Positions 1 to 48,636 of a stretch of 64,000 bases of DNA are shown in pieces. Made by a program: the position numbers and the translations under genes. The stretch comes from Rubrobacterales bacterium (lineage in GTDB: Bacteria; Actinomycetota; Rubrobacteria; Rubrobacterales; Rubrobacteraceae). Within the stretch, counting starts at the first letter, position 1. Every line of letters begins with the position of its first letter. Under the pieces are notes generated by a model. That model was not told the DNA's origin, did not search any database, and worked only from the letters and a program-made list of their open reading frames with translations. Location of the stretch: NCBI GenBank assembly GCA_038199875.1, contig JBBPYN010000076.1:7036-71035 (forward strand). The letters are read 5' to 3'.

Positions 1-752
1 GCGGCGAACTCTTCCGGGTCGGCGCTGCACACGAAGGTGGCAGCGCCCTCGTCATCGACGTGCCGAGGGCGGCGAAGGCGATCCCGCCTGGACAGGACGC
101 GGCCCACTTCGAGGGCGGTCTGGCCTGCTGAGGAGATCAGGCGCACCTCCGGACCGAGGATACGGTTGATGGGTGCCGAGATGAGCGGGTAGTGGGTACA
201 CCCGAGCACGACTGCGTCGACCATGCGCTCCATGAGCGGCTCAAGGTAGCCCCGCGCGACCGTTTCCAGCTCGGGCCCGTCCACCATGCCGCGTTCGATC
301 ATCGGCACGAACTCGGGGCATGCCTGCTCGTGGACCTCGATCCCCGCATCCAGAGAGTGAACGGCCCGCCTGTAGGCACCACTGGATGCGGTCAGCGGCG
401 TCGCCAGCACGCCGACGCGCCTGTTGCGCGTCTCCTCCACCGCGGCCCGCGCACCAGGCTCTATGACACCGATGATCGGGACCTCGAAAGAACGCTGGGT
501 CGCTCTGAGGGCGGCCGCCGTCGCCGTGTTGCACGCGATCACGACCAGCTTCACGTCCATCCCGATGAGGTAGTTGATGATCTCGAAGGTAAACCACCGC
601 ACCTCGGCGAGGTCCCTGACCCCGTAAGGCACCCTGGCAGTGTCCCCGAAATATACGGTGTGCTCGTAGGGCAGACGGTCCCTGATCTCCGCCAGCACCG
701 TCAGCCCGCCGACACCAGAATCGAAAACCCCAATTGGCCGCGGATCACTCAC
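1..752 (-). CDS. murI: Glutamate racemase (3' part runs off the window)
   Basis: Manual translation from GTG at 752 gives MSDPRPIGVFDSGVGGLTV...YFGDTARVPYG...LVVIACNTATAA, the typical MurI motifs. TATAAT lies 8 nt upstream. Confidence 0.93.
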   Translation of the reverse strand, partial: MSDPRPIGVFDSGVGGLTVLAEIRDRLPYEHTVYFGDTARVPYGVRDLAEVRWFTFEIINYLIGMDVKLVVIACNTATAAALRATQRSFEVPIIGVIEPGARAAVEETRNRRVGVLATPLTASSGAYRRAVHSLDAGIEVHEQACPEFVPMIERGMVDGPELETVARGYLEPLMERMVDAVVLGCTHYPLISAPINRILGPEVRLISSAGQTALEVGRVLSRRDRLRRPRHVDDEGAATFVCSADPEEFA

Positions 753-771
753 GGAACCGGATTATATCCTT

Positions 772-1015
772 TCAGCACGCTCCCTACGGTCGCTTGTCAG
801 CACGCTGCGCCCTTCGGGCTCCGCTCGTCCGCACGCTACGGGCCTTCGACCCTCACTCGTCAGCACGCTCAGGCTTTAAGCCTTCGCTTGTCAGCAAGTG
901 CGATCGTGTAGTGACCGCCGTTCGCAAGCAAAAGCTCACAGGCATGGCTTCGCTTTGCGAGCCTGGGAGACGCCATTCGAGATAAAGCTGAAAGCGACCG
1001 TAGGGAGCGTGCTGA
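772..1015. repeat. Composite REP-like element: 24-bp inverted repeats enclosing tandem ~31-bp hairpin units
   Basis: TCAGCACGCTCCCTACGGTCGCTT (772-795) is the exact reverse complement of 992-1015. TCAGCACGCT-like units start at 772, 797, 828, 860 and 891. Confidence 0.75.
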
Positions 1016-1043
1016 CAAGTGAAAGCCGAAGGCTGGAACGTGC

Positions 1044-1063
1044 GGGCCGGGGAACCCCGGCCC
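1044..1063. terminator. GC hairpin just downstream of ssrA
   Basis: GGGCCGGGG-AA-CCCCGGCCC is a perfect inverted repeat. There is no U-tract on the ssrA strand. Confidence 0.55.
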
Positions 1064-1070
1064 ATTTCAG

Positions 1071-1421
1071 TGGAGGCGGCGGGAATCGAACCCGCGTCCG
1101 CGAGCGCGCCGTCCGTGAGATTCTACGAGCATAGCTCCCGGTTTAGCTTCGCCTTCCGCAACGGACCGGGGCGCCGCCGCGAGGCTAGCCCGTTGAGTGT
1201 CCCCCCCGTGCACCGGGCCAGAACCCGGAGGGTGAGCCCACTAAATGACACCGGGAACCGGGCCGTGGGCCGCCCGGACCGATGGACTACTTGTTAATCA
1301 AGCAGCCAGAGCCATATCGTTATCGGCGTGTATCTTGTGTTGCCGGCGTTTTACGAGTCTCCAGCAAACTCGGCTCGTCTCACAGGACGCTGACCACTCC
1401 CGTCGAAGCCTATGCGCCCCC
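1071..1421 (-). ncRNA. ssrA: tmRNA
   Basis: 5' GGGGGCGCAUAGGCUUCGACGG and 3' GGUUCGAUUCCCGCCGCCUCCA form the tRNA-like domain. Tag ORF (A)ADNDMALAA* at 1327-1298. Directly downstream of smpB. Confidence 0.96.
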
Positions 1422-1472
1422 TTGTAAGACAAATATTCTACCATTTTGGAGGGATTCTGCAAACAAAACACG

Positions 1473-1925
1473 CTAGCGTCTCAGGCGTTCTTTCATGGCA
1501 CGTTCGATCTCGCGGTTCGCCGTCTTCTTGGCTATCTCGCGTCGTTTGTCGTACTGCTTCTTGCGGCCGGCCACGGCGATCTGCAGTTTGACGATGCCGT
1601 TTTTCGAGTAGAGCTTGAGGGGGATCAGGGTCTTACCGTCTTCCTGGCTCTTGCCTATGAGGCGGTCGATCTCTTTTCTGTGCAGGAGCAGCTTGCGGTC
1701 TCGGGTGGGGAGTTGCCTTTCCTGCCTGGCGTTCGCGTATGGCGAGATGTGCGCCCCGATCAGGAACACTTCCCCGTCCCTTACCCGCGCGTAGCTCTCC
1801 TTGAGGTTCGCCCTGCCTTCCCTGACGGACTTTACCTCGGGGCCCGTTAATTGTATGCCGGCTTCGTACGACTCTTCGATGTCGAAGTCGTGCAACGCCT
1901 TCTTGTTGCGCGCGAAGTCTGTCAT
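1473..1925 (-). CDS. smpB: SsrA-binding protein
   Basis: MTDFARNKKALHDFDIEESYEAGIQLTGPEVKSVRE...RKLLLHRKEI. ATG at 1925 overlaps the rnr stop (ATGA). Confidence 0.97.
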   Translation of the reverse strand: MTDFARNKKALHDFDIEESYEAGIQLTGPEVKSVREGRANLKESYARVRDGEVFLIGAHISPYANARQERQLPTRDRKLLLHRKEIDRLIGKSQEDGKTLIPLKLYSKNGIVKLQIAVAGRKKQYDKRREIAKKTANREIERAMKERLRR

Positions 1926-3535
1926 AAGTGTTTCACCACCCTCAGCTCGGCCCGCTGCATCAGCGGGAGAACATCGAGCAATTCTACCAGTACCCTGTCC
2001 CCCACCCTGTAGGAAGCCCCTATTGCGTCGTTGGAGAGGACGACGCCGTTCGCCTCCAGCTCCCACCAACCGGGGAGCTTGCTCACGTGGACGAGGCCAG
2101 TCGCGCCCGTCTCGAGCTCCACGAAGAGCCCGAAGGAGGCCGTGCTCACAACAGTTCCTTCTAGCACATCCCCCACCCTGTCACGCATCAGCCACATCAG
2201 CGTGTACTCATCCGAGGTACGCTCGCAGATCATGGACCGGTACTCCCTCTCGGAGATGGATTCCGCGACCGCAGGGAGGTCCTCGGGCGGGTCTTCGTCG
2301 AGCAGGGCGCGGTGGACGAGGACGTCAGCGTAGCGACGGATCGGGGAGGTGAAGTGGGTGTAGTGCTCGAGGGCAAGGCCGTAGTGGCCCAGGTCATCGG
2401 GCGAGTAGAGGGCGCGCGGGATGGAACGTAGGATCAGGTAGTTCACCGCGTCGGACTTGGCCATCTGGGAGATGGTCCCCAGGTTCTCGGGCGTTGGCTC
2501 CGCCTGCATCCCGACGGCGGCGAGCCGCTCGGCCAGTGTCTCCAGCGACTCAGCATCCGGCCTCTCGTGTACCCTGAAGACGCCGCTCTTCTTGTGCTGC
2601 AGCATCTTCGCGACCGATTCGTTGGCGAGGACCATGAGCTCTTCGATCAACTCCCTCGCCGGCGTCGAACGGCGGACTCCGGCGCCAAAGGGAACCCCAT
2701 CTTCATCGATCTCGTATTCGGGCTCGCGCCCGCCGAGCTCCAACTTGCCCCGTCTCGCAGCCCGCATCTTGAGCTTGCGCGAGAGCTCGTAAGCGGTCCT
2801 GATCAGCTCCGACCTCTCCACCTCTCCCTCACCGAGCAAGAACGCGTCGACGGCCTCGTAGGTCAGCCTGGCATCGCTGACGATCACGCTCCGGTAAGCC
2901 CTGAAGCCCCTGGCTACGCCTTCTGCGTCGACCTCCATCTCGACCGAAACGGCTGCCCGATCAGCGTGCGGCCTCAAGGAGCAGACGTCGTCCGAGAGAC
3001 GCCGGGGGAGCATCGGTGCAACCGTCCCTGGAAGATAGACCGAGTTGGCCCTGTAGGCCGCCTGCTTGTCTAGCGCGGAGCCGGGATCTACGTATTGCGT
3101 CACGTCGGCTATATGGACCCAGACCCTGTACCCACCGTCGGCGCGCTCGACCGAGATCGCATCGTCGAAGTCTTTGGCGTCAGCGCCGTCGATGGTGACG
3201 GTAGGCAGGTGACGCAGGTCCTGGCGCTCACCTTTCTCTCTGTGTGCAACAGCTTCGGCCTCCTCCTCGACCTTCCGCGGAAACCCTCGGGAGGTCCCGA
3301 TGGAGGCGAAGAGGGCCTCGTAGACGTTTCGCGGGTCCTCGGAGGTCCCGATCACACGCGTCACCTCGCCCCGCAGCGAGCGGTTCTTCTCGCGGGCGTT
3401 CACGAGGACGATATCTCCAGCTTCGGCACCCCTGCGAAGCTTGCGTGCGACCAGCACGGGACGCCGCTCCTCGACGAAGAGCGGGTCTGCTACCGAGTAC
3501 TTCCCCCGACGGACCAGCATGGCCGGAAGTATCAA
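1922..3535 (-). CDS. rnr: Ribonuclease R (RNB + S1), short form; start uncertain (3520/3535/3583)
   Basis: Catalytic TIDGADAKDFDDAIS and HFTSPIRRYAD motifs, C-terminal S1 domain, coupled to smpB. Confidence 0.88.
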   Translation of the reverse strand: MILPAMLVRRGKYSVADPLFVEERRPVLVARKLRRGAEAGDIVLVNAREKNRSLRGEVTRVIGTSEDPRNVYEALFASIGTSRGFPRKVEEEAEAVAHREKGERQDLRHLPTVTIDGADAKDFDDAISVERADGGYRVWVHIADVTQYVDPGSALDKQAAYRANSVYLPGTVAPMLPRRLSDDVCSLRPHADRAAVSVEMEVDAEGVARGFRAYRSVIVSDARLTYEAVDAFLLGEGEVERSELIRTAYELSRKLKMRAARRGKLELGGREPEYEIDEDGVPFGAGVRRSTPARELIEELMVLANESVAKMLQHKKSGVFRVHERPDAESLETLAERLAAVGMQAEPTPENLGTISQMAKSDAVNYLILRSIPRALYSPDDLGHYGLALEHYTHFTSPIRRYADVLVHRALLDEDPPEDLPAVAESISEREYRSMICERTSDEYTLMWLMRDRVGDVLEGTVVSTASFGLFVELETGATGLVHVSKLPGWWELEANGVVLSNDAIGASYRVGDRVLVELLDVLPLMQRAELRVVKHL

Positions 3536-3654
3536 GAGAGCGCTCCCAAAAGTATCTCGTAGGGCACGCTCAGAGTCTACCACGCAGCAGGTTTTCTTTA
3601 GTCTTTGGGCATCAGGCCAAAGGCTTCAGGTTCTGTAACCTGAGGCCTGAAACG

Positions 3655-4539
3655 CTATATCTTCCTGAGGAACCTCGTTACGGAGAGGAAGCTACCGATT
3701 ACGCCTATGCCCACCCCTGCGACTACCAGCGTCAGGAGCATGAGGGGGGCGTTTACGGCGGCGTCCGAGACCGGGACGAAGGGAAGGGCGTCGTGCGCCC
3801 AGTCGATGAAGAGGTAGTTGATCCAGATGACGGCGAGCGCGGCGAGTAGTGAGCCGACGAGGCCCTGGAGGAGGCCTTCGAAGACGAAGGGGGTACGCAC
3901 GAAGCCGTCTGAGGCGCCGACCAGCTTCATCACTTCGATCTCCTGGCGTCTGGCGAAGATGGAGAGCCTTATGGCGTTGGAGATAAGGAGCACGCTCGCG
4001 ATCAGGAACAACAGCGTGGCCCCGTAGAGGCCCCAGATCACGACCGAGGTCACCGAGTTGAGGCGGTCGATGGTCTGCTGCGGATAGCTGAGGTCGTCTT
4101 CGGTGAACCCCTCTTGCTTCAGTTTTTCAGCCACCTGGTTGGCGGTGCCAGGGTCTTCGAGTTGGATCTGGACCGACGCCGGTAGGACGCCCTGGTCGAG
4201 GTCCTTGTACAAATCCGGCTGGTCTTTGAACTGATCTTTGAACTCGGCGAAGGCCTCCCCTTCTGAGACCTCGGTTACCCTGGAGACCTCGGGCCAGCCT
4301 TCAACCTTGTTCGCGAGGGCGTCTAGCTCCTGGCTGGTGGCGTCGGGCGGGAACACCTCGACGCTCACGTCTTCGCGCACCGAGCCTATTATCCCCTGGA
4401 TATGGTCGCTGACGAGAAGACCAAGCCCGAGGACCAGGATACAGATGAACGTGGTCGTGACGGCGGTGAGGCTCATGAGCAGGTTGAGCCTGATGTTCTT
4501 GAACGCCTCGGTCAGGAAGAAACCCAGGTTAAACCTCAT
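3655..4539 (-). CDS. ftsX: Cell division permease FtsX
   Basis: TM topology and AIRLSIFARRQEIEVMKLVGASDGFVRTPF motif; follows ftsE. Confidence 0.95.
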   Translation of the reverse strand: MRFNLGFFLTEAFKNIRLNLLMSLTAVTTTFICILVLGLGLLVSDHIQGIIGSVREDVSVEVFPPDATSQELDALANKVEGWPEVSRVTEVSEGEAFAEFKDQFKDQPDLYKDLDQGVLPASVQIQLEDPGTANQVAEKLKQEGFTEDDLSYPQQTIDRLNSVTSVVIWGLYGATLLFLIASVLLISNAIRLSIFARRQEIEVMKLVGASDGFVRTPFVFEGLLQGLVGSLLAALAVIWINYLFIDWAHDALPFVPVSDAAVNAPLMLLTLVVAGVGIGVIGSFLSVTRFLRKI

Positions 4540-40405: not shown

Positions 40406-41500
40406 CTAGCCCTGGGTTCCTGCCGCTTCGGCGGCGAGCTTGTCCGCCCTCTCCTTGGCGGCGAGTGCCTGCGTGAACTCCTCCAGGTCGCCTCCGAGGG
40501 TGGCCTCCAGGTTGTGGGAGGTGACGCCGACGCGGTGGTCGGTAATGCGGCCTTGCGGGAAGTTGTAGGTACGGACCTTCGCGGAGCGGTCGCCCGTGCC
40601 GACCTGGGCCTGACGGAGGGCACCCTCTTGCTCGGCCCGCTCGCGCATCTCGCGTTCGAGGAGCCTTGACTTCAGGATCCTCATGGCCTGCTCTTTGTTC
40701 TGGAGCTGGCTCTTCTCGTTCTGGCAGGTCACGACGAGGCCGGTCGGCTTGTGCGTGATCCTGACCGCTGAGTCCGTGGTGTTCACGCTCTGTCCACCGG
40801 GACCGCTGGAACGGTACACGTCGACCTCGAGGTCTCCGGTGTTGATCTGGACCTCAACGTCCTCGGCCTCGGGAAGGACGGCCACCGTCGCAGTCGACGT
40901 GTGTATGCGGCCCTGGCTCTCTGTCTTCGGCACCCGCTGGACTCTATGCGTCCCGCCCTCGTGCTTGAAGACCGAGTAGGCCCTATCGCCGCTGATCTCT
41001 ACCGCGACCTCCTTGTACCCGCCGACCTCGGCCGGGCTCGACGAGAGGGTGCGGTGCTTGAAGCCGAGGCGGTCCGCGTAGCGCGTGTACATGTCGTGCA
41101 ACTCGCCGGCGAAGAGCGCCGCCTCGTCGCCGCCTGCGCCGCCACGGATCTCGATTATGACGTCCTTATCGTCGTTCGGGTCACGGTCGATGAGCTCGGT
41201 CCTTATGGTCTCCGATAGCTCTTCGATCCGCTCTTCCGCTTCCCTCGCCTCCGCCTGGAAGAACTCGCGCTCCTCGGCGTTCTCGGCCTGGGGGATGAGC
41301 TCCCGCGCGTCCCGCTCTGCCCCGACCACATCGAGCAGCTCACGGGACATCTCGGCCCCGCGCCGCATGCGTGCGTGCTCCCTGGCGACCTCGGCATAGT
41401 GCCGCTGGTCGCTGTAGATGTTGGGGTCCGAGAGTACTTTTGTCAACGTGTCGTAGCGGCCGAGCGTCTCCTCGGCCAGCTTCACTACCTGACTATCCAA
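40406..41500 (-). CDS. prfA: Peptide chain release factor 1
   Basis: HRVQRVPKTESQGRIHTS (PxT), GPGGQSVN. Confidence 0.97.
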   Translation of the reverse strand: MDSQVVKLAEETLGRYDTLTKVLSDPNIYSDQRHYAEVAREHARMRRGAEMSRELLDVVGAERDARELIPQAENAEEREFFQAEAREAEERIEELSETIRTELIDRDPNDDKDVIIEIRGGAGGDEAALFAGELHDMYTRYADRLGFKHRTLSSSPAEVGGYKEVAVEISGDRAYSVFKHEGGTHRVQRVPKTESQGRIHTSTATVAVLPEAEDVEVQINTGDLEVDVYRSSGPGGQSVNTTDSAVRITHKPTGLVVTCQNEKSQLQNKEQAMRILKSRLLEREMRERAEQEGALRQAQVGTGDRSAKVRTYNFPQGRITDHRVGVTSHNLEATLGGDLEEFTQALAAKERADKLAAEAAGTQG

Positions 41501-41501
41501 T

Positions 41502-42416
41502 TCAAATCACCAGTTTGTTCGTAGCCTCGTTCGGCTCGATCTCCGATTCCTTCTCCATAGAGAGGACCTTCTTCAGGGAGGCCATCGCGACCTCGACCAT
41601 GTCGTCGGAGGGCTCGCGCGTGGTCAACTTCTGCATCTGCAGTCCTGGCCACACGAGCGCCCGCACCAGCGCGCTGTCCTGGTGCCGCGCGCTCCACATG
41701 ATGAACTCGAACGCGAGACCTGCCACGACGGGGATGACGATCACCCGGCTTGCCAGCATGTAGAGCCACCCCTGGACCCCAAGCAGCGAGAACACCAGGA
41801 TAGAGAGGACGAGCACGTAAAGTACGAAGCTCGTCCCGCAGCGGACGTGGCTCGTGTCAAGCTTGCGCGCGTTCTCGGGAACCAACTCCTCGCCCCGCTC
41901 GTAGACCTTTATCGCCTTGTGTTCGGCGCCGTGGTAGCCGAAGAAGCGTTTGATGTCCTTGCTGAGGAGGGTGATGCCGACCAGGTAGGCAACGAAGATC
42001 GCGATCCTTATCACACCCTCGACGAGGTTGAAGAGAACAGGGTTCTCGATGCTGCCGCCGATCAGAGACCCGAGCCCCTTGGTCCCTAGGACGGGAGCGA
42101 CGAGGAAGAGCCCGAAACCGAGCACCAGCGCGAAGACGAGGGTGCCCGCGATCTCCTTCTTGGAAAGCTCCTGCTCCTCGCCGAGCGCAATGTTCGTCGA
42201 GAGCGTCAGCGCCTTCATGCCGAGCCACAGCGTCTCTCCCAGAGAAAGGGCGCCACGGATAATGGGTAGGCGGAACAGCTTGCTGCGGCGGGTGACCGAA
42301 CGGAACCGCTCAGCCCGCAAATCCATGTCTCCTGAGGGCGTGCGGACGGCCATCCCCCAGAAGTTGGGGGAGCGCATCAAGACGCCCTCCATTATGGCCT
42401 GTCCGCCGACCCTCAT
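41502..42416 (-). CDS. DUF1385 family membrane protein
   Basis: VGGQAIMEGV, YHGAEHKAI, RCGTSF, LTTREP. Confidence 0.9.
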   Translation of the reverse strand: MRVGGQAIMEGVLMRSPNFWGMAVRTPSGDMDLRAERFRSVTRRSKLFRLPIIRGALSLGETLWLGMKALTLSTNIALGEEQELSKKEIAGTLVFALVLGFGLFLVAPVLGTKGLGSLIGGSIENPVLFNLVEGVIRIAIFVAYLVGITLLSKDIKRFFGYHGAEHKAIKVYERGEELVPENARKLDTSHVRCGTSFVLYVLVLSILVFSLLGVQGWLYMLASRVIVIPVVAGLAFEFIMWSARHQDSALVRALVWPGLQMQKLTTREPSDDMVEVAMASLKKVLSMEKESEIEPNEATNKLVI

Positions 42417-42429
42417 AGTTTTTTAGGCC

Positions 42430-42648
42430 TTACTGCCTGTTCTCGCGGGCCTGCTGGCGGCGGTTCTGGAACCGCTGTACCCTGCCGCCGGTGTCGACTA
42501 TGCGTTGCTTGCCCGTGTAGAACGGGTGGCACTCGGAGCAGAGGTCGACCGTGATAGTGTCCCCCGCAGTAGAGCGCGTCTCGAACTCATTGCCGCACAT
42601 GCAGCGCACCAGCGTCGTCGTGTACTCTGGATGTATACCAGTCTTCAT
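42430..42648 (-). CDS. rpmE: 50S ribosomal protein L31 (Zn-binding type)
   Basis: [12 protein letters not shown]...[17 protein letters not shown]. Confidence 0.96.
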
Positions 42649-42769: not shown

Positions 42770-44281
42770 TTAGCCGCGGACGCGCTGGAGCTCGCGCAGG
42801 AACTCGGGGTTCGTGCGGGTCTCCTTGAGCTTCTGGATCAGGAGCTCTATCTTCTGCGCGCTGTCAAGGGCGTTGAGGATGCTGCGGACCTGCCAGACCC
42901 GCTGGGCCTCGGAAGGCTCCATGAGCAGCTCCTCCTTGCGTGTGGAGGAGTCCTCGATGTTGATGGCCGGGTAGATCCTGCGGTTCGCCAGCTTCCGGTC
43001 GAGCCTGAGCTCCATGTTGCCCGTGCCCTTGAACTCCTCGAAGATGACCTCGTCCATCCTGCTACCGGTCTCGACGAGCGCGGTCGCGAGTATGGTCAGG
43101 GACCCACCGTTCTCGATATTGCGCGCGGCCCCGAAGAACTTCTTCGGCGGGTAGAGCGCCGCCGAATCGACGCCACCGGAGAGGATCCTTCCTGAGGCCG
43201 GGGCTGCGAGGTTGTACGCCCGCGAGAGCCTGGTTATACCGTCGAGCAGCACGACCACGTCCTCGCCTTCCTCGACCAGGCGCTTGACGCGCTCCAGGAC
43301 GAGCTCGGCTACGGCGATGTGGTTGTCCGCGGGCTGGTCGAAGGTCGAGGCGACTACCTCGGCCTCCTCCACGCTGCGCTCCCAGTCCGTGACCTCCTCA
43401 GGGCGCTCGTCTGCGAGCACCACGAACAGCTTGGTCTCCGGATAGTTGGCCGCGATGGACTGGGCTATTTGCTTGAGAATCGTCGTCTTACCGGCCTTGG
43501 GAGGCGAGACGACCATCCCGCGCTGGCCCTTGCCTATCGGGGCGACGAGGTCGATGACGCGAGGGGCGATATCGTTCGGCTTCCACTCCAGGCGCAGCCG
43601 CTCCATCGGGTAAAGCGGCGTCAGGTCATCGAAGTTCGGGCGCCAGCGGCCCTTCTGGGGCTCCTGGCCGTTCACCGTCTCGATGCGGACCATCGCCGGA
43701 TACTTCTCACCCTCGCGGGCTGGGCGGATCTGGCCCGTGATCTCATCTCCCCTGCGCAGGTTGAAGCGCTTGATCTGGCTGGTCGAGACGTAGACGTCGC
43801 CCTTGCTCTGGCTGTAGCCTCCGGTCCTGAGGAACCCGAAACCGTCGGGCAACACGTCGAGGATGCCGGTCTGCACCTGCTCGTCGCCGCCGCGATTCCC
43901 GCGGTCCTGCCTGCGGTCCGGGCGCCTGCGCTCATCCTGTCTCTGCTGCTGCCTGCGGTGCTCGGGGGCTGGCGCCTCTGGCGGCGCCTCGACCGCGCCA
44001 TCCGCCGTGGCTGTCGTTTCGTTCGTCTCGGGCGCCGCAGCTGCGGAGGCCGCACCGTTAGCCGGTTGCGCTTCGGCCGTCGCCGCGCCGTTGGCTCCGC
44101 CGTCGGCCTCGCCGTTCGTCGTGTTCTCCTGCTGGGTCGCTGCCTGCTCGGTGGCGACCTTGTAGATCATCTCAGCGAGCTCGGGCTTGCGGTACTTGCG
44201 GTACTGCTTTATTCCTAGCTGCGAGGCGATCTGGTGCAGGTCGCTGAGCCGCTTGCGCTCCAGGGTCGAGAGTTCGGTCAT
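42770..44281 (-). CDS. rho: Transcription termination factor Rho with low-complexity N-terminal insertion
   Basis: [40 protein letters not shown]. Confidence 0.97.
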
Positions 44282-44499
44282 GTTTGTACTCCACCTTTCC
44301 CGTTTACGATGCGTAAAACGTCTTTCATCTGATTTCCTTGCAGGTCTGTCAAAGCTGGAAACCCCGCCGCCCGGCTTCGGGCTCTAGGGCGTGGATGGTG
44401 TCCACGAATCTTACCACACGGGGCTCGGTCGACATAACGACGGTGTGCGTCCGCGCGCCGCCCCCGGAGTACTTCACCCCTTCGAGGTGCGCAACCTTT

Positions 44500-44688
44500 G
44501 GCGCGACGCGCTCGGTCACAGCGGCGGCCGAGGCTATGGACCCCAAGCGGGAATCGGTAGCGTTAATGGGTTCTCACCGAACCTCCATACCCACCAAGAT
44601 GGACCGCATGCCACGGAACGCTCTCGTGGCCGGGTCTGTGTCGAATCGGTGCGGAATGGTCTCCTGGTTGAGACCAGCGTATCTTGCC
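44500..44688 (-). ncRNA. Candidate ~190-nt structured RNA (6S-like or long rho leader)
   Basis: TATACT at 44699-44694; predicted 5' end pairs with the segment ending at 44500; a second extended -10 (TGgTAAGAT, 44408-44416) lies closer to rho. Manual folding only. Confidence 0.35.
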
Positions 44689-44727
44689 CGCTAAGTATAC
44701 ACTAGCTACGGGGCGCCGACCACCGGC

Positions 44728-46044
44728 TCACGGCCCTTTCTGCGCCACCGCCTCCCGCGCGAGACCCAGAAGCTCCGTGTCGAGGCCATCTCCAACGGGG
44801 TCGTTGTCACAGTACAGTACGGGCTTCCCTTCCTCTGAGCCCCGGCGCGTAACGACGTCAACCGCGGCGGCTTTTATCTCCGTGAGGTAGGCCTCGACCC
44901 CTGACATCGCGTCGAGGTCATCGGCCAGGCGCCGCCTGTCGGACAGGTTCCCAGAGGAGGCGACTACCTCGCAGCCGTACTGCTCCTCCAGATGCCTGGC
45001 GAGCGTGTCTAGAACGGCTGGCGGCGCGGTCGAGACGTATCCGACCCGCATCCCCTCGATGTTTCCGACCGGCCGCGGCCTGAAGACCGTTGGGATCACG
45101 GTCAGGTCAGGCCGTACGTGGCCGATAGCCTTCACGAGGCCATCTACCTTCTCGGGTGCTGCCATGGGCTCCTCGCTCATGGTGAGGAGGACGAGGTCCG
45201 AGAGGAGCAGCCGGTAGGTACCGAGGAAACCAACGATGTACTCGGGGTCCTGATGGGCGCCCGCGACGAGCACCCGCCCCTCGACGCGGACGGGAGGCAT
45301 CGCCGCTCCGGACCCGTCGAAGACCGTGACCAGCGTGTCGAGGCGGTTGGCGATCTCCGCTCCCTCCACCACGTTGGAGACGAAGGGCTGCCCGGCGAGG
45401 CCGCCGCCGCACCTGCGGCATCCGACGGTGGTGACCCTGCTCAGGGCCGCCGTCTCATAGTAGTCGCTCGCCGCATGCGCCCCGCGGCCGAGGGCCTCGA
45501 GAAGGTACTCGCTCCCGACCTCCAGTTTGTGGCCCTCGATGATCTCGGGGTGGGGTGGCCCACCGCGGCCCATCGAGACCACGCCCGGATCGAAGCCCTC
45601 GCTGGCGAGAAGGCGCGCCAGGTAGCCAGAGACAGCCGTCTTTCCTACCCGCTTGCCGGTCCCGATCACGGCCAGGGATGGCTTGGTCGAGGCAGGCCGA
45701 AGGTCAGGGGGCTTGAGCTCGAAGTCGCTGCCGAGGTAGCGCGCCCCGGCGTAAAGGGCGAGCGAAGCGATCCTCATCCGCTCCCTGTAGCCGACCACGG
45801 GCTCATCGGAGAGGTCGACGACGACGTCCACCTCGTACTGGGATAACGCCCGCTCTACCGCGGAGACGGGGTCAGAGCCTTTGACCAGCGGAACGCCGTA
45901 ATCCGTGCCCGCCTTGAGCTTCTCGGTCCCCCCGAGGAAGGCCGCGGCCACCGCATTGGCCCCTAGCGACTTTTGCACGCTTTGCATGGCATCGAGGACG
46001 ACCGGAGGGTAGTGCTCGCCGTCGATCAGGAACAGGGCCAGCAC
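44728..46044 (-). CDS. cpgS: Cyclic 2,3-diphosphoglycerate synthetase-like protein
   Basis: N-terminal LIDGEHYPPVV, GTGKRVGKT P-loop, RRCGGGLAG, TEIKAAAVDVV, motifs I recognise from archaeal cDPGS. Confidence 0.85.
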   Translation of the reverse strand: MLALFLIDGEHYPPVVLDAMQSVQKSLGANAVAAAFLGGTEKLKAGTDYGVPLVKGSDPVSAVERALSQYEVDVVVDLSDEPVVGYRERMRIASLALYAGARYLGSDFELKPPDLRPASTKPSLAVIGTGKRVGKTAVSGYLARLLASEGFDPGVVSMGRGGPPHPEIIEGHKLEVGSEYLLEALGRGAHAASDYYETAALSRVTTVGCRRCGGGLAGQPFVSNVVEGAEIANRLDTLVTVFDGSGAAMPPVRVEGRVLVAGAHQDPEYIVGFLGTYRLLLSDLVLLTMSEEPMAAPEKVDGLVKAIGHVRPDLTVIPTVFRPRPVGNIEGMRVGYVSTAPPAVLDTLARHLEEQYGCEVVASSGNLSDRRRLADDLDAMSGVEAYLTEIKAAAVDVVTRRGSEEGKPVLYCDNDPVGDGLDTELLGLAREAVAQKGP

Positions 46045-46049
46045 CTGTG

Positions 46050-46868
46050 CTAGCTCATCGTCGAATGCTCGCTGCTGTCCCCCGGTCGCCCGTCGCCCTC
46101 CTCATAGTGCTTGTACCGGTGGGTCGCCGCGTCGAAGTCCACGATCAACTCCCTGTCCTTGAACGGGTACTTGCGGAAGACCATCACCCTGCCGTCTTCG
46201 ATCTCTATGATGTTGTAGCAAGGGCGCGTGTTTCCCCTGAGGCGCGTGGTCGAGGCGGTCCCTGCGTTGACGATGAACATGTCTTCGAGCCTCCACGAGT
46301 AAGGCACGTGCTTGTGGCCGGAGAGGACCAGGTCGACCTCTGTGTCGGCGAGCAGTTCCAGCACATCCCCGGCATCGTAGATGATGTTCCGCTCACGCCC
46401 CGTGCCTGGAATGGGGATCAGGTGGTGGTGGATAACGAAGATCTTGAGCCTGTCTCCGGCGCCTGCGAAGGTCTCGTGGATGAACTCGTAATGCTCGCGC
46501 CCCACCCGCCCGTCGTCGAGGTCTGGCTCCGAGGAGTCGACGGCGACCATGACGGCGTCTTCGAAGTCGAGGGTCGAGTACCGTTCACCGAAGAGCCGCT
46601 CGAAGTGGATGTAACCGACGTTGCGCGAATCGTGGTTGCCCGGGATCACCACGATGCGCTCGCACCTTATGCGGCGGATATACTCGGCCGCCATCTCGAA
46701 CTCCTGGCGGTAACCGGCATCCGTCAGGTCGCCAGAGACCACGACGGCGTTGGGATCCAGTTCGTTTATCTCGAGGATCGAACGCTCCAGCAGGTCCGGG
46801 ATGAAGTAAGGACTGCCGCAGTGGATATCGCTGATCTGACAAATAACCATCTGGCCCCGCGCGCTCAT
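46050..46868 (-). CDS. Calcineurin-like metallophosphoesterase
   Basis: SDIH, GDLTD, GNHD, HHH, GHKH complete metal-binding set; 5 nt from the cpgS start; extended -10 TGtTATACT upstream. Confidence 0.92.
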   Translation of the reverse strand: MSARGQMVICQISDIHCGSPYFIPDLLERSILEINELDPNAVVVSGDLTDAGYRQEFEMAAEYIRRIRCERIVVIPGNHDSRNVGYIHFERLFGERYSTLDFEDAVMVAVDSSEPDLDDGRVGREHYEFIHETFAGAGDRLKIFVIHHHLIPIPGTGRERNIIYDAGDVLELLADTEVDLVLSGHKHVPYSWRLEDMFIVNAGTASTTRLRGNTRPCYNIIEIEDGRVMVFRKYPFKDRELIVDFDAATHRYKHYEEGDGRPGDSSEHSTMS

Positions 46869-46998
46869 TCGCTCCCCGATTCCATGGACTGGAAATGCCC
46901 GCAAAAGTATAACAGAGCGCCCTTCCGGGGCTTCAGGTTACAGGATTGTCCTGGGGACGGTACCTGGGGTAACTAGCGGTACCGAGCAATTCGGGGGC

Positions 46999-48636
46999 TT
47001 ACATCTTCTCTGGCGCGTTCACCCCGAGAAGGGCGAGGCCATTGCGCAGCACGGTCTTCGTGGCGGCGCACAGGGCGAGACGGCGTTGCCTCGTCTCCTC
47101 GTCGTCAACGAGCACACGGTGCAACGTGTAGAACTGGTGGAAGCGGGTGGCTAGGGTTTCGAGGTACGTTGGCAGGGGATGTACCTCGCGCCTGGAGGCG
47201 GAGTTTTCGATTACGCGGGGGAAATCCAGTAGCTCGAGCACGAGCAGACGCTCTTCTGGCGCGAGATCCCCGGCAGGAATCTCGCCCAGGTTCTCTGGGC
47301 TAGTTTCGGCCCGCTCGAAGATGCTCGATATGCGGGCGTGGGCGTACTGGACGTAGAAGACGGGGTTCTCTTCGGACTGGCTGATCGCGAGGTCAAGGTC
47401 GAAGTTCATCTCGGTGTTGTGGGAGGAGCGCACGTAGAAGTAACGGGCTACGTCCTCCCCCACCTCATCGAGCAACTCGTCGAGATCCACGCTATTGCCT
47501 GCCCGCTTGCTGAACTTGACCCGTTCGCCCTCACGCACGAGCTTCACGAGCCTGACCAGTTCGACGTCGAGGAACTCGCGGGGCAACCCGAGCGCGACGA
47601 GGCCTGCCCTTATGCGGGGCGGGTAGCCGGCGTGATCCGCGCCGAGCACGTCGACGGCAGTCCGGAAACCGCGCTCCCACTTGCCGCGGTGGTAGGCGAG
47701 GTCGGGGGCCATGTACGTAAACGACTCGTCGCTCTTGACAAGTACCCTGTCCTTGTCGTCCCCGAACTTCGAGGTCGCGAGCCACATGGCGCCCTCGCCC
47801 TCGTACACGTTGTCGCCCTCCGCGAGCTCCTGGACGATCTCCTTTACCGCGCCAGACTCGTAGAGGTCCTTCTCGTTGAAGAAGGTGTCGAAGCGGACCC
47901 GTACACGGGCCAGGGTGCGCTTGATCTCGTCCATACACCAGCGGGTCGCGAAGGCGGTTATCTCGCGCAGAGCCTTTTCACGGTCCATCTCCAGAAGGTC
48001 GCGGCCGTGCTCTCTTACGACATCCTCCGCTATCTCCTTTGTGTAATCTCCCTGGTATGCCGGTTCCGAGTTGGAGAGGGGCCACGTCTCCCCGTAGAGT
48101 ACGGCGTATCGGGCGGCGACCGACTCGCCGAAGAGGCGGATCTGGTTCCCCCCGTCGTTGAAGTAGTACTCGCGTGAGACGTTCCTGCCCGCGGTCTCCA
48201 TGATCCTGGCCAGCGAGTCCCCGTAGGCAGCCTGGCGCCCATGCCCGACATGCATGGGGCCCGTCGGGTTGACGCTGACGAACTCGAGCAGGACAGGATC
48301 CCCAGAAGGCTCCCGCCAACCGTAGAGATCACCCTGTTCCAGCAGAGAATTGACCTCATCCCACAACGCTTGCGTGGAGAGCCTGAAGTTGACGAACCCA
48401 GGTCCAGCAACCCCAGCCTCACACACGTAAGGCGCGTCGAGCGCCCCGACGAGGTTCTCGGCGACCTCCCTTGGGTTCCTCCGCAGCACCCTGGCATTGG
48501 CGAGGGCGACGTTCGTGGCAAAATCTCCGTGGCTCGGGTCGTTCGGCCGCTCGACGTGGATACCGTCGAGCTCGACCCCATAGGTCCTCTCTACAGCCTC
48601 CCGCACGGCGTCAGCCAGACGCTCCTCGAAGCTCAT
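46999..48636 (-). CDS. argS: Arginine--tRNA ligase
   Basis: GDFATN, GPGFVNF, SVNPTGPMHVGHGR, FSKRAG, YVQYAHARI. Confidence 0.96.
   Translation of the reverse strand: MSFEERLADAVREAVERTYGVELDGIHVERPNDPSHGDFATNVALANARVLRRNPREVAENLVGALDAPYVCEAGVAGPGFVNFRLSTQALWDEVNSLLEQGDLYGWREPSGDPVLLEFVSVNPTGPMHVGHGRQAAYGDSLARIMETAGRNVSREYYFNDGGNQIRLFGESVAARYAVLYGETWPLSNSEPAYQGDYTKEIAEDVVREHGRDLLEMDREKALREITAFATRWCMDEIKRTLARVRVRFDTFFNEKDLYESGAVKEIVQELAEGDNVYEGEGAMWLATSKFGDDKDRVLVKSDESFTYMAPDLAYHRGKWERGFRTAVDVLGADHAGYPPRIRAGLVALGLPREFLDVELVRLVKLVREGERVKFSKRAGNSVDLDELLDEVGEDVARYFYVRSSHNTEMNFDLDLAISQSEENPVFYVQYAHARISSIFERAETSPENLGEIPAGDLAPEERLLVLELLDFPRVIENSASRREVHPLPTYLETLATRFHQFYTLHRVLVDDEETRQRRLALCAATKTVLRNGLALLGVNAPEKM

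Follow-up and report, generated by a model that had tools for sequence, protein, structure and literature searches.

A metallophosphoesterase gene paired with cpgS in Rubrobacteraceae as a candidate for the cyclic 2,3-diphosphoglycerate hydrolase

The window analysed here comprises 64,000 nucleotides of a Rubrobacterales bacterium (assembly GCA_038199875.1, contig JBBPYN010000076.1, positions 7,036 to 71,035 of the forward strand). It is a segment of a Rubrobacteraceae chromosome with a GC content of ~63%; the closest proteins carry Rubrobacter or Rubrobacteraceae names, and the DNA was detected in soil and biocrust metagenomes. On the minus strand lies a gene for a metallophosphoesterase (MPP), followed by cpgS, which encodes a homologue of the synthetase that makes cyclic 2,3-diphosphoglycerate (cDPG) from 2,3-diphosphoglycerate (2,3-DPG). 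Comparison of gene neighbourhoods strongly supports a functional link of this MPP subfamily to cpgS, to 2-phosphoglycerate kinase (2PGK) and to cDPG/2,3-DPG metabolism, and the MPP is a candidate for the hydrolase that would oppose CpgS. The order on the minus strand is argS, 130 nt, MPP, 5 nt, cpgS, 446 nt, rho, rpmE, a DUF1385 gene and prfA (Table 1).

By sequence, MPP and cpgS form a two-gene operon with its own conserved extended -10 promoter. The element TGTTATACT was read in the region between argS and the MPP gene, and CTnTGnTATACT was kept ~35-45 nt 5' of the MPP ATG in 17 of 19 Rubrobacteraceae loci. In these loci it was the sole conserved block of the argS-MPP intergenic region, and the DNA around it was unconserved; TGTTATACT was therefore accepted as the operon promoter. 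This conservation across loci is stronger evidence than the match to a consensus. A generic two-hexamer scan for promoters and terminators called no promoter, as TGTTATACT has no -35 element, and no terminator after cpgS. The MPP gene starts at the ATG at 46868, and homologues align from residue 1; the mechanically called reading frame reaches further, to a TTG at 46904. The stop codon (TAG, 46052-46050) is followed after 5 nt by the GTG start of cpgS at 46044. Over 94 loci the spacing between the two genes had a median of 6 nt, with an overlap in 31 loci and at most 30 nt in 79, and the genes are probably translationally coupled. An earlier note on this DNA had proposed the extended -10, the 5-nt distance and the position between argS and rho; the first two were confirmed by these readings, and both flanking genes were identified by Pfam.

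The downstream gene appears from its sequence to be a genuine cDPG synthetase orthologue (2,3-DPG + ATP → cDPG + ADP + Pi). A phmmer search aligned residues 4-417 of its 438 residues with the Methanothermus fervidus cDPG synthetase (PDB 8ORU/8ORK; E = 3.9e-126), and a further match was obtained to PDB 9SXB (E = 1e-107). The domain CpgS_N (PF27272) is precomputed for an identical protein (P0001); the Pfam/NCBIfam scan performed here gave no cpgS match. The M. fervidus enzyme closes 2,3-DPG to a seven-membered cyclic pyrophosphate at the expense of ATP, and ATP, Mg2+ and 2,3-DPG are contacted by the Walker A residues K145/R146/K149/T150, by E45/K46 from the partner subunit, by D208 and by E404/K406 (PMC10690619). 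The corresponding motifs, namely the P-loop GTGKRVGKT, GGTEK (E45/K46), AASD (equivalent of the Mg ligand D208) and TEIKAAAVD (E404/K406), are all retained in the window protein and invariant in the cpgS alignment (A1), which places the protein among the CpgS enzymes. Within Rubrobacteraceae the identity of CpgS ranged from 74 to 90%. As the protein is well conserved and its catalytic residues are intact, it is presumably active on something.

Homologues of cpgS with 47-50% identity were also observed in a different operon in four Bacillota metagenome-assembled genomes (L042, L043, L049, L062). This operon comprises a GntR/UTRA regulator, cpgS, a solute-binding protein, a permease, an ABC ATPase and an iPGM-like metalloenzyme. 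Its composition resembles that of an operon for uptake or catabolism, in which the reverse, ATP-yielding reaction may be used.

The MPP matched the Pfam family Metallophos (PF00149; E = 1.5e-18). Its five motifs, D14-x-H16, G46-D47, G77-N-H-D80, H147-H-H149 and G184-H-x-H187 (GHKH in this protein), constitute the complete metal-binding set that the earlier note had described, and they were invariant across the subfamily alignments (A3, A4), as is characteristic of the metallophosphoesterase superfamily. Beyond these motifs the subfamily has a signature of its own, DxH, GD, GNHDxRNVG, PD..G, HHH, PxPGTGRER (also PxPxTGRER), DAGD and GHKH, all of which the window protein carries. The residues R82, N83, G85, D116, G120, P154, G157, R158, E159, R160, G167 and D168 are kept from Rubrobacter to Thermococcus and Methanobrevibacter. 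In an exhaustive HMMER search of 1.84 billion representative clusters, 225 reached E ≤ 1e-30, tandem-domain proteins of ~500 aa among them. Judged by these characters, the window MPP belongs to a small, sharply defined subfamily.

An AF2 model of the MPP (pTM 0.81, pLDDT 75) had GpdQ, Rv0805 and purple acid phosphatases as top Foldseek matches (probability 1.00, TM ~0.6), and these matches assign to it the predicted beta-sandwich fold of metallophosphoesterases. The loops of low confidence coincided with the conserved stretches specific to the subfamily (PDLDDG, PIPGTGRER, VPYSW, RLRG), and such Arg-rich conserved loops would suit a small polyanionic substrate. Known equivalogs did not accommodate the protein. 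The top NCBIfam match was the anti-phage phosphoesterase DS9_1, yet it scored 71 bits against a cut-off of 420. The CpdA/Icc equivalog (NF008359) scored 33.8 bits against a cut-off of 225, which makes the MPP a non-member, and every other NCBIfam equivalog also remained below its cut-off. The earlier note had described the fold as CpdA-like; the similarity to Rv0805 and CpdA is weak, and the family is not the CpdA equivalog.

At least 558 matches were obtained when a single genome of each species was scanned for cpgS, and the best 80 loci were analysed. Among these, the MPP gene lay directly upstream of cpgS on the same strand in all 49 Actinomycetota loci with upstream room; one further actinomycetotal locus begins too near the contig end to be judged. 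The 49 loci include Rubrobacteraceae, Aquicultor, Thermoleophilia and loci labelled Coriobacteriia, with identities to the window proteins down to ~50% for CpgS and ~52% for the MPP. In Rubrobacteraceae the order is MPP-cpgS-glpX-rho. In 20 Actinomycetota loci outside Rubrobacter cpgS is followed by 2PGK (here an ATP-cone and P-loop kinase), by fsa/transaldolase or glpX, and by rho, and the cluster is preceded by hom-thrC-thrB. The remark of the earlier note that many Actinobacteria carry lysA/thr genes at this position is consistent with this arrangement.

A second scan of metagenomes was seeded with the MPP motif GNHD[AVS][RK][NS][VG]G and yielded 67 single-domain loci, of which 13 are cut off by a contig edge and thus give no information on the neighbouring gene. 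The gene immediately downstream was cpgS in 46 of the 53 informative loci, mostly with 2PGK next, and cpgS was missing in the other seven. In a neighbour-joining tree the cpgS-linked MPP genes formed one large clade, with the unlinked genes L084 (WOR-3), L108 (Methanobrevibacter type), L118 and L142 at its base and with L152 and the pair L150/L172 as exceptions nested within it.

The association recurs in archaea in a different form. Thermococcus barophilus MP has the order cpgS-2PGK-CBS-tandem MPP with tight spacing, and the same set of four genes was found in two metagenome loci, one convergent (L095) and one collinear (L098). The tandem MPP gene is almost always paired with a gene for a small protein of two CBS domains; other members had this partner alone, or nothing, nearby. 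The second, C-terminal MPP domain of the tandem proteins (L081:8001-9524, L093-L095) lacks key metal ligands, with SESN in place of DxH, GHND in place of GNHD and GHGG in place of GHxH, and is probably non-catalytic, a pseudo-enzyme or a regulatory domain. Since the association was rebuilt in archaea with a different order, strands and architecture, synteny by descent cannot explain the pairing. The strongest argument for a functional link is that this MPP recurs with cpgS and 2PGK in two domains of life, each time with its own gene order, strand arrangement and domain architecture. Co-occurrence and adjacency, which the earlier note had named as its check, were thus clearly positive in Actinomycetota (49/49 and 46/53) and independently positive in Thermococcales and related archaea.

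A published data set contains a further gene of possible interest. In Pyrococcus yayanosii CH1 the gene PYCH_14380, encoding a 'hypothetical' protein of 474 aa, shares 19 nt with the end of the 2PGK gene (PYCH_14380-14400), and under pressure stress its protein fell to 0.15-0.2, with 2PGK up 9-14-fold and cpgS up 3-4-fold (PMC4890121 Table S3). Its position resembles that of the convergent tandem-MPP gene of L093/L095; as a putative MPP it is a lead only.

From the observed operon anatomy, cpgS identity, catalytic set and neighbourhood conservation we infer the substrate of the MPP and the direction of its reaction. We favour the reading of the cpgS-MPP operon as a whole as a cDPG cycle in which the MPP would be the hydrolytic, degradative arm, with a probability of roughly 0.45. 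That the substrate is either cDPG or 2,3-DPG seems slightly better than an even chance; that the reaction is specifically cDPG → 2,3-DPG is put forward tentatively. CpgS would close 2,3-DPG to cDPG at the cost of ATP, the binuclear metal centre of the MPP would activate water and open the cyclic pyrophosphate of cDPG to give 2,3-DPG, and the two opposing enzymes would set the size of the cDPG pool. The reopened 2,3-DPG could be converted to 3-phosphoglycerate (3PG) or 2-phosphoglycerate (2PG) and enter lower glycolysis or gluconeogenesis, returning carbon and phosphate. The presence of glpX or fsa/transaldolase after the cluster fits a return of carbon to gluconeogenesis. CBS domains commonly sense adenine nucleotides, and in the archaea regulation against a futile cycle would naturally reside in the CBS partner. 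Each phosphorus of cDPG would, from its chemistry, be mono-anionic, doubly substituted and diester-like, and the nearest solved folds, the diesterases GpdQ and Rv0805 (≤19% identity), were counted for cDPG as the substrate. A role of cDPG as a store of carbon and phosphate was proposed in Roberts' review (PMC1224877). As to the synthase/hydrolase pair claimed in the earlier note, its functional link is strong by adjacency in two domains of life, and its hydrolase remains a candidate. The most comprehensive form of the favoured reading is less likely than not: the MPP subfamily would be the missing cDPG hydrolase and would form with CpgS, and with 2PGK where present, a regulated cDPG/2,3-DPG buffer of phosphate, carbon and energy. 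This buffer would be widespread among mesophilic Actinomycetota of soil, Thermococcales and further archaea, with the CBS protein and the degenerate MPP domain as regulators in the archaea.

A number of findings weigh against the cDPG cycle. A tblastn search with two actinobacterial 2PGKs found no 2PGK in the 64-kb window, where the best match had E 0.7, nor beside cpgS in the flanking DNA of 29 Rubrobacteraceae loci. A synthase and a hydrolase expressed from one promoter would run a futile cycle unless the hydrolase is regulated post-translationally. Contigs that span the junction are no evidence of co-transcription, because they come from soil metagenomes or from runs of unspecified type in which the coverage is flat. 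Solute surveys of R. xylanophilus by NMR reportedly did not list cDPG (Empadinhas 2007; reference given in PMC3505630). The pairing also has exceptions. MPP genes with neither cpgS nor 2PGK nearby were found in WOR-3 (L084/85) and in L142, L150/L172, L152, L157 and L094. Those of L150 (2831-3673) and L172 (2009-2815), both from soil metagenomes, encode proteins 70-72% identical to the window MPP and sister to the Rubrobacteraceae clade, and lie in unrelated surroundings, where 2.5 kb on each side contain no cpgS; they represent a paralogue or else a lineage in which the genes have become separated. In L118 (region 317-3914) a single-domain MPP with 54% identity to the window protein lies inside a pst operon. 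It is flanked by a PstS-like phosphate-binding protein that carries a PGF-CTERM anchor and, judged by eye, by a likely pst permease gene, a context that hints at a role in phosphate starvation for some members. Conversely, a cpgS-like gene of Streptomyces rimosus pSRIMHP (L174; NZ_CP100398.1, 458089-459381; 44% identity, annotated as hypothetical protein) stands alone, with no MPP or 2PGK within 8 kb, and is an exception to the actinobacterial pairing.

The methanogens count on the same side. In none of the 30 non-actinobacterial loci among the best 80 (24 Methanobacteria, one Methanopyri, one Altiarchaeota and four Bacillota) did an MPP gene lie within 10 kb of cpgS; Methanobacteria are the only group in which the hydrolase has been measured, in one member. 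Clustering of the open reading frames within 6 kb on both sides of cpgS in these 30 loci revealed no recurrent MPP or other obvious hydrolase, and the Methanobrevibacter loci displayed lineage-specific synteny only. The Methanobacteriaceae do have a single-domain MPP of the subfamily (Methanobrevibacter type), which keeps the entire signature at ~40% identity to the window protein; its neighbours are unrelated genes at L108 and at M. arboriphilus L173, the two loci examined, and in M. arboriphilus they are a NAC gene and an RNase gene. Methanobacteria thus present co-occurrence of cpgS and a full-motif MPP at the level of the genome, which counts in favour of the cDPG cycle, but without synteny. 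The cDPG hydrolase activity was reportedly described by Sastry et al. in 1992 (Biochemistry 31:2926) in Methanobacterium (Methanothermobacter) thermoautotrophicum. It is the same activity as the one proposed here, cDPG → 2,3-DPG in opposition to CpgS, but the published hydrolase is membrane-bound and is inhibited by K+ and Pi (PMC1224877), whereas the MPPs of the subfamily look soluble. Inspection by eye revealed no signal peptide or long hydrophobic segment in them, with which a peripheral membrane association remains compatible. Finally, tight 2PGK-CBS-MPP operons occur with no cpgS within 8-10 kb (L089/L090, 'Methanomicrobia archaeon'; L097), which points to 2,3-DPG as the substrate.

These operons speak for a first alternative, which we consider unlikely, that the MPP is a 2,3-bisphosphoglycerate phosphatase removing the 2- or the 3-phosphate, or that it forms with 2PGK an ATP-driven bypass from 2PG to 3PG. 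The route would lead from cDPG to 2,3-DPG by reversal of CpgS with a gain of ATP, for which the reported reversibility of the M. fervidus enzyme is a point in favour (PMC1224877), and then to 3PG or 2PG and Pi. The order 2PGK-CBS-MPP was also found in L101, a short contig with its upstream end cut and no cpgS in the available flanks, and a Heimdallarchaeota contig has CBS and MPP together with a 2PGK homologue 9 kb away; however, genomes with this order may encode cpgS elsewhere, and an operon of 2PGK and a phosphatase would by itself be a pure futile cycle. The purple acid phosphatases among the nearest folds are monoesterases and the clusters are linked to the gluconeogenic glpX or fsa, both of which suit a phosphatase, but the closest relatives in sequence and fold are diesterases, and the MPP of Rubrobacteraceae pairs with cpgS and not with 2PGK.

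A second alternative, equally improbable in our estimate, holds that these MPPs are hydrolases of phosphate compounds or nucleotides in general (a pyro- or polyphosphatase or a class-III phosphodiesterase) whose genes adjoin cpgS through inherited thr-rho synteny. Homologues are annotated in their sources as 'Icc protein/CpdA', or by JGI as class-III cyclic-nucleotide phosphodiesterase, in keeping with the weak similarity to Rv0805 and CpdA but not with a score so far below the CpdA cut-off. The members without cDPG genes nearby, one of them in the pst operon, agree with a general function. The block in Actinomycetota always lies beside rho, and its conservation could partly reflect vertical inheritance; against this stand the rebuilding of the association in archaea and the maintenance of overlapping or nearly overlapping stop and start codons across a divergence of CpgS to ~45-50% identity. 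The few close relatives found among the 1.84 billion clusters are also unlike what a housekeeping phosphodiesterase would have. A non-degradative role, in which the MPP would regulate CpgS or 2PGK as a protein phosphatase or repair a side product of these enzymes, is very improbable: tight operon linkage and the ligand-sensing CBS partner of the archaea are its sole support. The MPP showed no resemblance to protein phosphatases of the PPP type, small molecules are the substrates of its nearest relatives, and no candidate side product is known.

If the cDPG cycle is correct, the cDPG buffer would extend beyond hyperthermophilic methanogens to mesophilic soil Actinomycetota, Thermococcales and other archaea. 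According to PMC10690619, cDPG is restricted to hyperthermophilic methanogens, a view contradicted by the frequent presence of cpgS, in most cases together with 2PGK, among soil Actinomycetota; for Thermococcales it is described as never detected (PMC7511516). The distribution of cpgS suggests that desiccation-tolerant bacteria, Rubrobacter among them, may use cDPG to store phosphate or energy. The searchable literature contained no paper that joins 2-phosphoglycerate kinase, or cyclic diphosphoglycerate, with a metallophosphoesterase. A cDPG hydrolase activity is on record (PMC1224877; Sastry 1992, as cited by PMC10690619), and the searchable literature yielded no gene for it, in line with the earlier note, which knew of none. 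Degradation of cDPG was thus shown biochemically in 1992, and the MPP subfamily offers a concrete, directly testable gene candidate; the fold is a known one, and the novelty lies in the subfamily, in the pathway to which its genes are tied and in the substrate proposed for it. As an extremolyte, cDPG is of commercial interest; it is a compound whose synthesis genes, 2PGK and cpgS, are known and whose enzymes have been crystallised, and a hydrolase, if confirmed, would matter for production strains, either to be avoided or to be used for control.

The gap between cpgS and rho contains an in-frame, internally deleted remnant of glpX, the gene for class II fructose-1,6-bisphosphatase (FBPase). 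In Rubrobacter xylanophilus DSM 9941 (type strain; CP000386), whose MPP gene (P0134) adjoins cpgS, the gene order is identical to that of the window, but the glpX in the gap is intact. Compared with locus L025 the remnant is without ~790 bp, and a repeated CTCGAAGGG (LEG) marks the point where ~19 N-terminal codons meet the final 45. A similarly short gap is present in five other Rubrobacteraceae loci (L001, L014, L017, L018, L029), and the deleted form is spanned by other soil-metagenome contigs; for these reasons it is not considered an assembly artefact. Upstream of glpX lies a conserved leader (window 44515-44702, minus strand; L025:11343-11551; L004:11337-11535; and others), which begins with GTGTATA(A/C)T, continues with ~170 conserved nucleotides and contains an invariant GGAGG and a mini-ORF of four codons (GTG AGA ACC CAT TAA in the window). 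The leader persists even where glpX is deleted. It had no Rfam match, and RNAalifold gave weak structural support, with 9 of 36 pairs covarying and an unfavourable covariation term; the leader may regulate FBPase II, through a leader peptide or as an RNA element. An Rfam scan of 40-52 kb of the window gave two sub-threshold chance matches only, none of them in the operon or in the cpgS-rho gap.

Table 1. Features of the MPP-cpgS locus and its flanks, in the order of the minus strand; positions are those of the window.
Feature	Position	Strand	Basis or remark
argS, upstream flank	46999-48636	-	Open reading frame list and Pfam; separated from MPP by 130 nt with promoter
Extended -10 TGTTATACT (TGnTATACT) of the MPP-cpgS operon	46906-46914	-	Sequence reading and conservation
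Shine-Dalgarno GGGGAG, 3 nt 5' of the MPP ATG	46872-46877	-	GGG core conserved
Metallophosphoesterase (MPP), 272 aa	46050-46868	-	Open reading frame list, Pfam, motifs
Spacer between MPP stop and cpgS start, 5 nt	46045-46049	-	Read from the sequence
cpgS, cDPG synthetase homologue, 438 aa	44728-46044	-	phmmer and motifs
-10-like element GTGTATACT, start of glpX leader, downstream limit of the MPP-cpgS unit	44694-44702	-	Conservation
glpX remnant, internally deleted in frame	44349-44531	-	Comparison with L025
cpgS-rho gap, 446 nt	44282-44727	-	Contains the glpX remnant and its leader
rho, downstream flank	42770-44281	-	Pfam; adjoins the cluster throughout Actinomycetota
rpmE	42430-42648	-	
DUF1385 gene	41502-42416	-	
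prfA	40406-41500	-	

Among known systems, the M. fervidus cDPG synthetase is the nearest to the cpgS half of the operon, with ~50% identity over the full length and all reported contact motifs for ATP, Mg and 2,3-DPG kept. The window differs in that its host is a soil bacterium and in that no 2PGK adjoins cpgS in Rubrobacteraceae. For the MPP, the closest solved relative by sequence and by fold is GpdQ of Enterobacter aerogenes (PDB 2ZO9, 3D03, 2DXL; E = 5e-7; Foldseek E = 6e-11, TM ~0.6), which is alike in its binuclear MPP core and its size. The identity is only 17-18% and the gene context differs; the alignment, which is not a residue-by-residue comparison, covers residues 38-188 of the MPP, and GNHDxRNVG and PxPGTGRER were not recovered in it. 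The class III cyclic-nucleotide phosphodiesterases (Rv0805/CpdA/Icc) have the fold and the five motifs in common with the window MPP, and Rv0805 is 18-19% identical to it (E = 2e-4). The pyrophosphatases of the MPP family (LpxH/LpxG, ADPRibase-Mn) act on unrelated substrates, and LpxG is remote from the window protein (19 bits against a cut-off of 350), but they are a precedent for the cleavage of P-O-P bonds by a binuclear MPP centre. One of them, the ADP-ribose/CDP-alcohol pyrophosphatase ADPRibase-Mn, also opens the phosphoanhydride of cyclic ADP-ribose, that is, a P-O-P bond within a ring.

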